Shown piece after piece: positions 5,191 through 6,994 of a DNA stretch of 64,000 bases (the stretch's first letter is position 1; each line of letters opens with the position of its first letter). The stretch is taken from the sequence record OZ035800.1. One strand, given 5' to 3'. Source of the stretch: Felixounavirus LF82P5. Both the position numbers and the translations under genes were made by a program. The notes under the pieces are model-generated. The model ran no database searches. It was not told the origin of the DNA and saw only the letters and a program-made list of their open reading frames with translations.

Positions 5191-5389
5191 AATGACCTCA
5201 AAGTTATATTAAATTTTGTATTACATTGAGTATAAAAATAAGCTATAACACCTGACTTGTCAACAGATTTTATAGCTTATTTGGCAGATTTTTTATAAGG
5301 CTACTGCCATCCTTCCATACTTTACCGAACATCACCCTACTGAACCCGACCCTACCTCACCCGACCCAACCGAACCGTACCGAGCACAG

Positions 5390-5468
5390 CCTTATTAAAA
5401 GACCCTCTTTAAAGACCTTTTAAAAAGGTAAGTCTCATTTTAATGTAGCTGAGACTAACTACCCATAC
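5390..5468. repeat. repeated intergenic element, copy A
   Basis: About 79 bp: CCTTATTAAAAGACCCTCTTTAAAGACCTTTTAAAAAGG plus hairpin AGTCTCA-12 nt-TGAGACT; near-identical copy at 6788-6866. Confidence 0.6.
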
Positions 5469-5527
5469 CTCACCTTACCACGCCGAACAGCACCGGACTA
5501 TACCAGACCATGCCGAACATTGCCGAG

Positions 5528-5566
5528 CCTTATTAAAAGACCCTCTTTAAAGACCTTTTAAAAAGG
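5528..5566. repeat. repeated intergenic element, partial copy B
   Basis: 39-bp quasi-palindromic core identical to the start of copy A. Confidence 0.55.
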
Positions 5567-5585
5567 AGCCTCCGAAGAGGCTACC
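5555..5585 (-). terminator. rho-independent terminator (minus strand)
   Basis: On the minus strand AGCCTC-UUCG-GAGGCT hairpin followed by a U5 run, immediately downstream of the 5594..6034 stop. Confidence 0.55.
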
Positions 5586-5593
5586 TAGTCAAC

Positions 5594-6034
5594 TTAGAAA
5601 GGTTTTCTACGTTGCTTGTTAATGTTAGCTTTCATAGCAGCTAAATGGTTTTGCTGTTCAATTAGTCGTGAACGTTCTTGATGGCTAAGTACCATAGTGT
5701 TCACATTCTCAATCGCTTGAGTGGCTTGCTTTAAAGCACGACCAATCTTACCAGACATTTTACGTTTTGCAATAGTTGCTTGATGCTTAGGTTCAACCAC
5801 ACGATAACCAACACCCATTGAAGCAACCAGATAAATCTTCTCTTCTTTAAGAAGCTTCTCAATAAACTTCTCAAGTCGATTTAAGCGTGTAAGCGCATAA
5901 GCCTTCATTTCATCTTCGTACTTAACAATGTCACCTTGATAAGTTGGCTTCACAATACCTAAGAAGGTGTCCATCTCAGAATGTGATACAGTGTCACCGT
6001 AACTAAACTTTGCTGCTAATGCTTTTGTATTCAT
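5594..6034 (-). CDS. hypothetical protein
   Basis: 146-aa ORF with ATG start; flanked by repeat elements. Confidence 0.5.
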   Translation of the reverse strand: MNTKALAAKFSYGDTVSHSEMDTFLGIVKPTYQGDIVKYEDEMKAYALTRLNRLEKFIEKLLKEEKIYLVASMGVGYRVVEPKHQATIAKRKMSGKIGRALKQATQAIENVNTMVLSHQERSRLIEQQNHLAAMKANINKQRRKPF

Positions 6035-6036
6035 AA

Positions 6037-6624
6037 TTAAACGTTACCTTCTGAAATAACTTCTACAGAAAAACGACCAAAGCGTGGACGCCAATCACCT
6101 ACACCACAAAGGTTGCCAGCATTTTCCAGAACCATCAGAAGTTCCTCTCTGGTGATTTGCTCTTCATCGAACATCAAACCAAACTCTACAGACCAGTCAC
6201 GGAAGATTGGACGGTAACTCATAACTCGTGCTGTACCAATCTTAACAGACTTAGCATAGATAAAGTCTGGATTCTTAGCAAGTTCTTGTGGGTTTGCTGG
6301 ACAGTTCTTGATAGTCATTGGGAAGACTACATCTGTCAGCATAATGGCTCGGTCAATTACCTTACCAAGTTTGTTGAGCTTTGCACCAGACTTGATACAA
6401 GCCTCAATCATCTCACCGTTCATAACAAAACCTAACTGCTCATCGTAGTAACAAGAAGTTACCAGTTGGCTTTCTGCTAAGAGCGCATAGTCTTCGTCAG
6501 TCTTTTTACGTTTACTGGACAGAGACTTGTGATATTTTGTCAGAGGGTTTAATGGGTCTGACAGTGTATCGTTATGGCTCAGGAAAGGACGAGTACCAGT
6601 GATTTTGATATTTAACAGTTTCAT
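6037..6624 (-). CDS. hypothetical protein
   Basis: Track ORF 6037..6639 begins with GTG; start moved to ATG ([10 protein letters not shown]) with GGAG Shine-Dalgarno. Confidence 0.5.
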
Positions 6625-6787
6625 AGCATTTAGCTCCACACTTTAGTTGATTGTTAAGTTGTTTGTAAAGAACCCTCAACAGAAGACTCTTTAGAAACTT
6701 GGTAGATTTTTAACGTGCATACTACCATCCACCCATACCGTGCCACACCACACCGGACCGTACCATTCCCAACCCTACTACACCAGA

Positions 6788-6866
6788 CCTTATTAAAAGA
6801 CCCTCTCCAAAGACCTTTTAAAAAGGTAAGTCTCATTTTAATGTAGCTGAGACTAACTACCCATAC
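6788..6866. repeat. repeated intergenic element, copy C
   Basis: Near-identical to 5390-5468 (one CC/TT difference); flanked by CA-rich tracts. Confidence 0.6.
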
Positions 6867-6994
6867 ATTACCGCACCATATTATACCCTACCCCACCATA
6901 CTTCACTGCACCGAGCCACGCATTACATCACTTAAAAACCCTTTTCAAAGACTCTTAAGTGATGCTGGTGAGTACCCGTTGGTTTATGATGCTC

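Follow-up and report, generated by a model that had tools for sequence, protein, structure and literature searches.

Repeated intergenic elements of Felixounavirus LF82P5 as very probable parts of a type II VIPR locus

What is the function of the repeated elements that lie on either side of two small genes in Felixounavirus LF82P5? The stretch analysed, called the window below, comprises 64,000 nt of sequence record OZ035800.1 from a Felix O1-like myophage, and is in the region of interest 95% identical to phage wV8. Near-identical 79-bp copies at 5390-5468 and 6788-6866, with a 39-bp partial copy at 5528-5566, had been pointed out there in an earlier note and are present as it described them. 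The answer, at a probability of about 95%, is that the repeated elements belong to a VIPR (Viral Interference Programmable Repeat) locus, of type II and of the SUSP1 clade. In it a pair of genes, vipr and vap1, has two vrRNA genes on its upstream side and two on its downstream side, all of them on the minus strand. The system itself is already known: the finding is a further instance of VIPR, which was characterised in 2026.

Two 2026 bioRxiv preprints from one laboratory describe VIPR as phage-encoded RNA-guided DNA silencing, its parts being vipr, an accessory gene, vap, and vrRNAs of ~100 nt (10.64898/2026.04.26.720920; 10.64898/2026.04.26.720927). The vrRNAs have 9-16 YNNGG repeats and end in an invariant 3′ tail, about 40 nt long, which forms a pseudoknot in members of the SUSP1 clade; the clade was defined from 13 loci. 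Those of SUSP1 co-purify with Vipr, the complex silences transcription, silencing needs no protospacer-adjacent motif (it is PAM-free), and most guides of the clade target a satellite in E. coli genomes (10.64898/2026.04.26.720920; 10.64898/2026.04.26.720927). By this scheme each pentamer of an LF82P5 guide would be bound by one Vipr protomer with its GGY sequestered. The exposed NN dinucleotides would pair with double-stranded DNA, every third target base being skipped, and the resulting R-loop triplex would block transcription. The four guides are directed against a satellite of 11-12 kb that many E. coli chromosomes carry as an insertion and that is probably a parasite of the phage.

What the locus holds is a RAMP-type Vipr of about 20 kDa, an adjacent vap1, YNNGG guides, pseudoknot tails, satellite targets matched with a 1-nt skip, and no self-target. 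Its counterpart in SUSP1 has the same position (from the DNA ligase gene to the gp93-like gene) on the same strand, a Vipr 97% and a Vap1 99% identical, YNNGG guides, the same two pseudoknot tail types, and the same satellite as target, matched with the same 1-nt skip at wobble positions. It differs in that the host phage is a Suspvirus and not a Felixounavirus, in having 1 + 3 vrRNAs rather than the 2 + 2 found here (mapping of the phiSUSP1 locus, L020, in the present work gave 1 + 3, as in the preprint), and in all four guide sequences; one tail pseudoknot, that of vrRNA2, is weakened in the window.

The repeat units and their guides

The extent of the repeat had been seen only in part: the copies are there, but a four-unit array bracketing two genes was missed. 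A repeat search of the window gives four units with 138-nt spacing, at 5329, 5467, 6727 and 6865, two in each intergenic region; by it the long copies reach 91 nt, with 93% identity. The 39-nt core at 5390-5428 is identical to that at 5528-5566 and has two mismatches to that at 6788-6826 (chance expectation, 0 matches); the fourth unit has a different inverted-repeat core, at 6926-6964. Read on the sense strand, the 79-bp repeat consists of the final pentamer of a guide and its 32-nt pseudoknot tail, followed after 2 nt by the inverted repeat (39 nt) belonging to the next guide, while the 39-bp partial copy is the inverted repeat alone, 3′ of a terminator-like hairpin after vap1. A vrRNA unit of ~138 nt begins with the 39-nt hairpin, continues with 11-15 YNNGG pentamers as its guide and ends in the 32-nt pseudoknot tail. 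All genes of the locus (the gp93-like gene, the two genes at 5594-6034 and 6037-6639, and the ligase gene) are on the minus strand. In the order of that strand the parts are:

6926-6964, minus strand: 5′ hairpin of type IR2 (CATCACTTAA...TTAAGTGATG), directly before guide 1
6861-6925, minus strand: guide of vrRNA1, 13 YNNGG pentamers ending in the invariant UAUGG
6829-6860, minus strand: 3′ tail of vrRNA1, GUAG-UU-AGUCUCA-G-CUAC-AUUAAAA-UGAGACU, containing the AGTCTCA hairpin
6788-6826, minus strand: 5′ hairpin of type IR1 (the earlier note's 'quasi-palindromic core'), before guide 2
6733-6787, minus strand: guide of vrRNA2, 11 pentamers with the terminal UAUGG included
6701-6732, minus strand: 3′ tail of vrRNA2, of the second type, GUGG-AU-GGUAG-UAU-GCAC-GUUAAAAAU-CUACC
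6037-6624, minus strand: vipr, encoding 195 aa with the ATG at 6624 as start (the mechanical open reading frame (ORF) starts at the GTG at 6639)
5594-6034, minus strand: vap1 (vipr-accessory protein), 146 aa
5528-5566, minus strand: 5′ hairpin IR1, before guide 3
5463-5527, minus strand: guide of vrRNA3, 13 pentamers with the terminal UAUGG included
5431-5462, minus strand: 3′ tail of vrRNA3, a pseudoknot identical to the vrRNA1 tail
5390-5428, minus strand: 5′ hairpin IR1, before guide 4
5315-5389, minus strand: guide of vrRNA4, 15 pentamers with the terminal UAUGG included
5283-5314, minus strand: 3′ tail of vrRNA4, of the second type, AAGG-AU-GGCAG-UAG-CCUU-AUAAAAAAU-CUGCC

The C/A-rich tracts, noted earlier as unusual flanks of the repeat, are real and far from chance, but they are not mere flanks: they are periodic, being the reverse complement of the guide segments. 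On the minus strand they read as in-phase pentamer arrays with 11-15 YNNGG each. Pentamers in the window, (TNNGG)n, have T at position 1 in 77%, G at position 4 in 75% and G at position 5 in 96%, with positions 2 and 3 near random. Seven or more in-phase GG at a period of 5 are found in only these four places of the 64 kb, where 8-11 were observed against a maximum of 4-6 in 20 shuffles. For 1177 pentamers from 29 related loci the corresponding composition is Y 96%, N, N, G 77%, G 94%, and the mode is 13 pentamers per tract. The NN positions are hypervariable and almost wholly different between phages with flanks >95% identical. Since the register is conserved while the N positions are hypervariable, the pentamer pattern is under selection.

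Both tail types vary in a manner that preserves pairing. Across six variants of the hairpin-type tail 100% of the cells are paired, with 3 compensatory stem pairs. The second type, found before genes, has 97% of cells paired and compensatory changes both in the pseudoknot (AAGG/CCUU vs GUGG/CCAC) and in the stem (GGCAG/CUGCC vs GGUAG/CUACC). Controls with slid partners give 23-50%. The hairpin AGTCTCA-12 nt-TGAGACT picked out by the earlier note is identical in both copies (5431-5456 and 6829-6854), and its assignment to the minus strand was right; the hairpin is real and stands at the 3′ end of the RNA.

In public records the vrRNA scaffolds are anonymous features. The wV8 record annotates the repeat as 'DR_4' only and that of phage bumzen as 'repeat_region'; it is unmentioned in the Felix O1 and UAB_Phi87 genome papers, and a literature search for pentanucleotide repeats gave nothing. 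A scan of the region with Rfam 15, a library without vrRNAs, gave no known RNA family and one chance-level match (E=0.88) inside the vap1 coding sequence. The tail and 39-nt hairpin sequences have no blastn match in E. coli genomes.

Several other ideas about the tracts were set aside. The working hypothesis drawn from the sequence alone, a site for a TRAP-like ring protein, had the right logic (a protein reading periodic triplets) and the wrong family. Adenine mutagenesis of (TAAGG)n in the manner of a diversity-generating retroelement was dropped as positions 1 and 4 vary too and the Felix O1-like phages are not known to have a reverse transcriptase. A Rho-proof spacer or antisense rut site leaves the register unexplained, and as decoys for Chi, KOPS, BREX or CRISPR protospacer-adjacent motifs the tracts offer merely sporadic motif matches.

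Proteins and targets

The window Vipr is identical at 190 of 195 positions to PDB entry 36pp, 'SUSP1 Vipr protein' (E=1.5e-127), and a profile of 33 Vipr family members matches one solved structure, the same 36pp (E=3e-81). Its AlphaFold2 (AF2) model has a pLDDT of 93, with Csm3/Cas7 RAMPs as best fold matches. Vap1 is identical at 144 of 146 positions to SUSP1 YP_009199428.1, the product of the gene beside vipr in that phage. Public records annotate both vipr and vap1 as hypothetical proteins; Pfam and PADLOC have no match for either, and PHROGs has matches only to families of unknown function. The Vipr family, unnamed and without a Pfam domain, comprises 519 matches of about 190 aa at 40-50% identity, from coliphages to actinobacterial records.

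The association of this protein with pentamer arrays can be seen from the DNA side as well. Viral contigs were scanned by the DNA pattern GGTNN x7 alone, giving at least 120 loci, and the ORFs around the arrays were clustered. Among the matches listed there are, besides simple microsatellites, many unrelated viral contigs with heterogeneous arrays, each 10-20 pentamers long; these arrays are often in tandem, have a contig-specific end motif, and are intergenic, on the sense strand of neighbouring genes. Vipr homologues are present in 37 of 63 such heterogeneous-array loci, on the array strand and mostly <100 nt away, and Vap1 homologues adjoin arrays in two unrelated contigs. Because the loci were chosen by DNA pattern alone, the association of Vipr with arrays is an independent genetic link.

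The scan also brought up matters of its own. Directly beside arrays in six unrelated viral contigs (L034, L059, L063, L092, L131, L148) is a family of about 160-aa proteins, probably another vap type. One of them, L131, has about 18 overlapping arrays within 1.2 kb, which may be the 'staggered' architecture named in the VIPR preprint. In ten contigs (L065, L068, L076, L079, L081, L093, L120, L125, L141, L142) the GGTNN match lies inside an ORF of 115-460 aa on the opposite strand; these ORFs are mutually homologous and the matches are probably a coding repeat unrelated to VIPR.

The satellite named as target in the preprints has a baseplate hub 72% identical to SUSP1 YP_009199407.1 (10.64898/2026.04.26.720920; 10.64898/2026.04.26.720927). 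Chromosomal homologues of the SUSP1 baseplate hub gene were found by blastn in 474 of 5426 complete E. coli genomes, and guides were scored against satellite loci with skips of 0-3 nt. At eight satellite loci with a 1-nt skip, vr1 matches the tape-measure gene at 11 of 12 NN, vr3 a small satellite ORF at 11 of 12 (11 contiguous and perfect) and vr4 the large serine recombinase gene at 13 of 14 (13 contiguous and perfect). With skips of 0, 2 or 3 nt the window guides score 6-8, which is chance level, and none of 200 order-shuffled guides reached the observed NN scores. The base skipped is the third of its codon, the wobble position, in each of the four targets, which are predicted at L158:9756, L159:10138, L158:6854 and L160:8855; the invariant last pentamer, UAUGG, is outside the matches. 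For 72 guides and two satellite loci, 23 guides have at least 70% NN match with a 1-nt skip, compared with 0, 1 and 0 guides with the other skips. There is no self-target within the window, the best match there being 40-55% of NN positions, equal to that of shuffles. Exact full-length NNx patterns of vr1 and vr2 have no match in IMG/VR; such exact scans are unsuited, because natural targets carry one or two mismatches.

The satellite (loci L156-L163) is an island of 11-12 kb with serine recombinases at its two ends, one small and one large; it also encodes a tape-measure and a baseplate protein. Its chromosomal insertion sites vary: yciI-tonB, a DUF72 gene, mdtG and the neighbourhood of wrbA. 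Strains that have it include PAR, 08-3914 and 94EC. In three of the eight loci an insertion sequence (IS) element interrupts the tape-measure gene.

Likeness of VIPR to better known systems is partial. The Class 1 CRISPR filaments (Cas7/Csm3) share the RAMP/RRM fold with a glycine-rich loop and, according to the preprints, the arrangement of one protomer per RNA repeat unit and a thumb that periodically disrupts guide-target pairing. Their period is 6 nt with 5 pairing bases, whereas that of VIPR is 5 nt with 2, and VIPR is phage-encoded, without a CRISPR array, other cas genes or spacer acquisition. The trp RNA-binding attenuation protein (TRAP) binds a trp leader RNA with 11 (G/U)AG triplets, separated by spacers of 2-3 nt, that is wrapped on a closed ring. 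There too a protein oligomer reads conserved triplets split by short variable spacers. In TRAP, however, the ring is closed and the spacers are informationless, while in VIPR there is a helical filament with the spacers as the guide, and the proteins are not homologous.

Several points weigh against the identification as a VIPR locus or against its details. The sources for VIPR are preprints, and expression as ~100-nt RNAs, binding by Vipr and silencing are taken over from those on SUSP1, so that for LF82P5 they would hold by analogy. The guide vr2 has the weakest target match (8 of 10 NN, 8 of 9 contiguous, in the tape-measure gene of the eight satellite loci), and its tail has GCAC as pseudoknot strand in place of the usual CCAC, with three of four pairs formed. 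This GCAC is the only such variant among 33 tail instances, all relatives having CCAC. Eight of the 474 satellite-bearing genomes were sampled, and the best natural targets may differ. Finally, the terminator-like hairpin after vap1 sits ahead of the downstream vrRNAs and bears on the way in which these are transcribed.

Other readings of the repeats

The alternative that survives best, very improbable though it is, takes the repeats for ordinary regulatory cassettes, that is intrinsic terminators and promoters between early genes, duplicated by recombination and without guide function. The promoter-stem-loop cassettes of T4-type phages resemble what is meant. In its favour, the same intergenic regions have σ70-like promoters and one terminator-like hairpin; with the bordering genes these are:

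7179-8282, minus strand: ATP-dependent DNA ligase gene
6995-7022, minus strand: σ70-like promoter TTGACA-16-TATACT, shortly after the ligase gene, agreeing with the consensus at 11 of 12 positions
6640-6669, minus strand: promoter-like site TTTACA-18-TAAAGT upstream of vipr, weak (9 of 12 matches)
5567-5582, minus strand: terminator-like hairpin AGCCUCUUCGGAGGCU after vap1, its U run being the start of the next 5′ hairpin; it has the form of an intrinsic terminator, whose stem is rich in G+C, with a 3-8-nt loop and a U run adjoining the stem
4807-5190, minus strand: gp93-like gene

The promoter at 6995-7022 is conserved in Felix O1 and all related loci and, as predicted from its sequence, likely drives the upstream vrRNAs. 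Also in keeping with regulatory cassettes, the number of units varies between relatives and a U run follows the hairpin in the two tails succeeded by IR1. Such cassettes do not account for the strict 5-nt register, in which GGY is conserved and NN hypervariable, nor for the occurrence of Vipr homologues beside the arrays of unrelated phages, nor for target matches that obey a single skip rule. The AGTCTCA hairpin in particular had been suggested to terminate transcription, which is not borne out as its main function: with a 12-nt loop, and 4 nt from the U run, it is not called by a consensus scan for terminators, and it is the stem of the conserved pseudoknot tail. The U run, present at the two window tails followed by IR1, is absent in relatives in which the IR2 core type follows the tail. 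At the two tails that have it, termination may occur. Between the ligase stop codon and the promoter at 6995-7022 there is a small ORF of 48 very hydrophobic aa (MFSTVILFILVVFVLSYVASKLL...; 7029-7175, minus strand); some relatives share it (L010), Felix O1 lacks it, and L023 has another small hydrophobic ORF in its place.

Even fainter is the case for a miniature mobile element, inserted twice, with the two genes carried as a composite cassette. Here the relatives are informative. The interval is built of modules and differs greatly among 29 related IMG/VR loci: upstream of the two-gene cassette there are 0-3 units, downstream of it 1-3, and the cassette is itself present or absent. Where it is present, Vipr and Vap1 are 98-100% identical though the ligase is 85-89% identical (85-99% over all) and gp93 31-34%. 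By tblastn, Vipr at ≥90% identity is in 117 records as against 230 that share the region, so about half of the Felix O1-like phages have it. A mobile element would account for a cassette that is so much more alike than its neighbours, is bracketed by direct repeats and is absent from about half of relatives. In the window, though, there are no copies outside the locus and no transposase, the inverted repeat is internal to each unit, and in relatives every mapped copy is in the same ligase-gp93 interval; a check for further copies, which the earlier note had advised, found none elsewhere in the 64 kb. The repeated parts are accounted for as vrRNA scaffolds, between which homologous recombination could have brought the cassette in or removed it. 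The protein identities do point to recent exchange of the vipr-vap cassette, as read from the sequences, but a mobile element speaks to the spread of the locus, not to the function of the repeat. Of the earlier suggestions, that of protein binding was broadly correct.

A transcription-primed replication origin, with G-rich non-template tracts 3′ of a strong promoter forming R-loops or G-quadruplexes, has as little to recommend it: the tracts have extreme GC skew, a promoter is upstream and the site is among replication genes, but a pyrimidine is required after GG, G being rare there (3% at pentamer position 1) though it would strengthen a quadruplex, arrays in other phages sit in many copies between small genes, and the Vipr link and target matches explain the pattern fully.

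Among the records with vipr is one oddity, GU169904.1 (Staphylococcus phage SA1, 147 kb), which has the whole of this Felix O1-like region inside it, with a vipr 98.5% identical, a sign that the assembly may be chimeric or contaminated.

The 5′ hairpin and the units of relatives lacking vipr

With the VIPR locus taken as established at the strength given, one part of the unit is left over. IR1 and IR2 are both 39 nt long and have the same pairing register and central sequence, with different stems. Of the cells of the alignment 93% are paired, compared with 40-65% when the partner is slid, and six of the 12 pairs are changed on both sides; this covariation comes essentially from two alleles and so reflects few evolutionary events. 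G.U pairs are tolerated in the sense strand only. RNAfold lengthens the helix to about 18 bp. The centre is conserved as GUCUUyWAAGAGGGU, which contains the Shine-Dalgarno-like AAGAGG. A degenerate copy of the centre (AAGAGTCTTCTGTTGAGGGTTCTTTACA) at about 6660-6690 overlaps the predicted vipr promoter, and a 19-nt motif, TCAAAGACTCTTCAGAGAT, at 5016-5034 inside the gp93-like coding sequence has 89% identity to the IR2 hairpin centre at 6945-6963 (family D4 of the repeat search). A σ70 promoter inside the hairpin (TTAAAA-18-TTTAAT) is doubtful: its second hexamer lacks the A that is conserved at position 2, and the consensus scan does not call it.

In the text of the two VIPR preprints the hairpin is not described; their figures lie outside this statement, and the absence is no proof that it went unnoticed. 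Tentatively, and at somewhat less than even odds, it could make up a third, so far undescribed component of type II vrRNA genes. It would possibly act as a processing signal that sets the 5′ ends of vrRNAs, through host RNase III or a Cas6-like activity of Vipr, and/or as a recombination substrate for gain, loss and exchange of the vipr-vap cassette and of single guides among Felix O1-like phages. For the hairpin alone there is an analogue in the RNase III processing hairpins between the early genes of phage T7. Both are conserved hairpins of about 18 bp between consecutive, probably co-transcribed RNAs; the 39-nt hairpin differs in that its stem is short and rich in G.U pairs, and its cleavage is suggested by analogy with T7.

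Units also occur where there is no Vipr to use them in cis. Felix O1 has no genes between the ligase gene and ORF87 and keeps a single unit with inverted repeat, 11 pentamers and tail (L003:3501-3782; NC_005282 57632-57913). It and L008, L012, L013 and L030-L033 have no vipr or vap in the interval and one or two complete vrRNA units. Guides of the vipr-less L008, L012 and L033 match the satellite at 9-12 NN positions with a 1-nt skip only, and those of Felix O1, L013, L030 and L032 have no match to the satellite loci examined. Such units may have been left by loss of the cassette, or their guides may act in trans. The text of the preprints does not mention guide units in vipr-less relatives.

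With 117 vipr-positive records, compared with 13 loci from which the clade was defined, many more natural guides are at hand. The 5′ hairpin and the vipr-less guide units bear on how vrRNAs are produced and on how the guide repertoire evolves. If the hairpin is indeed a recombining scaffold, it would explain why vrRNA units are left in relatives that lack vipr, Felix O1 included.

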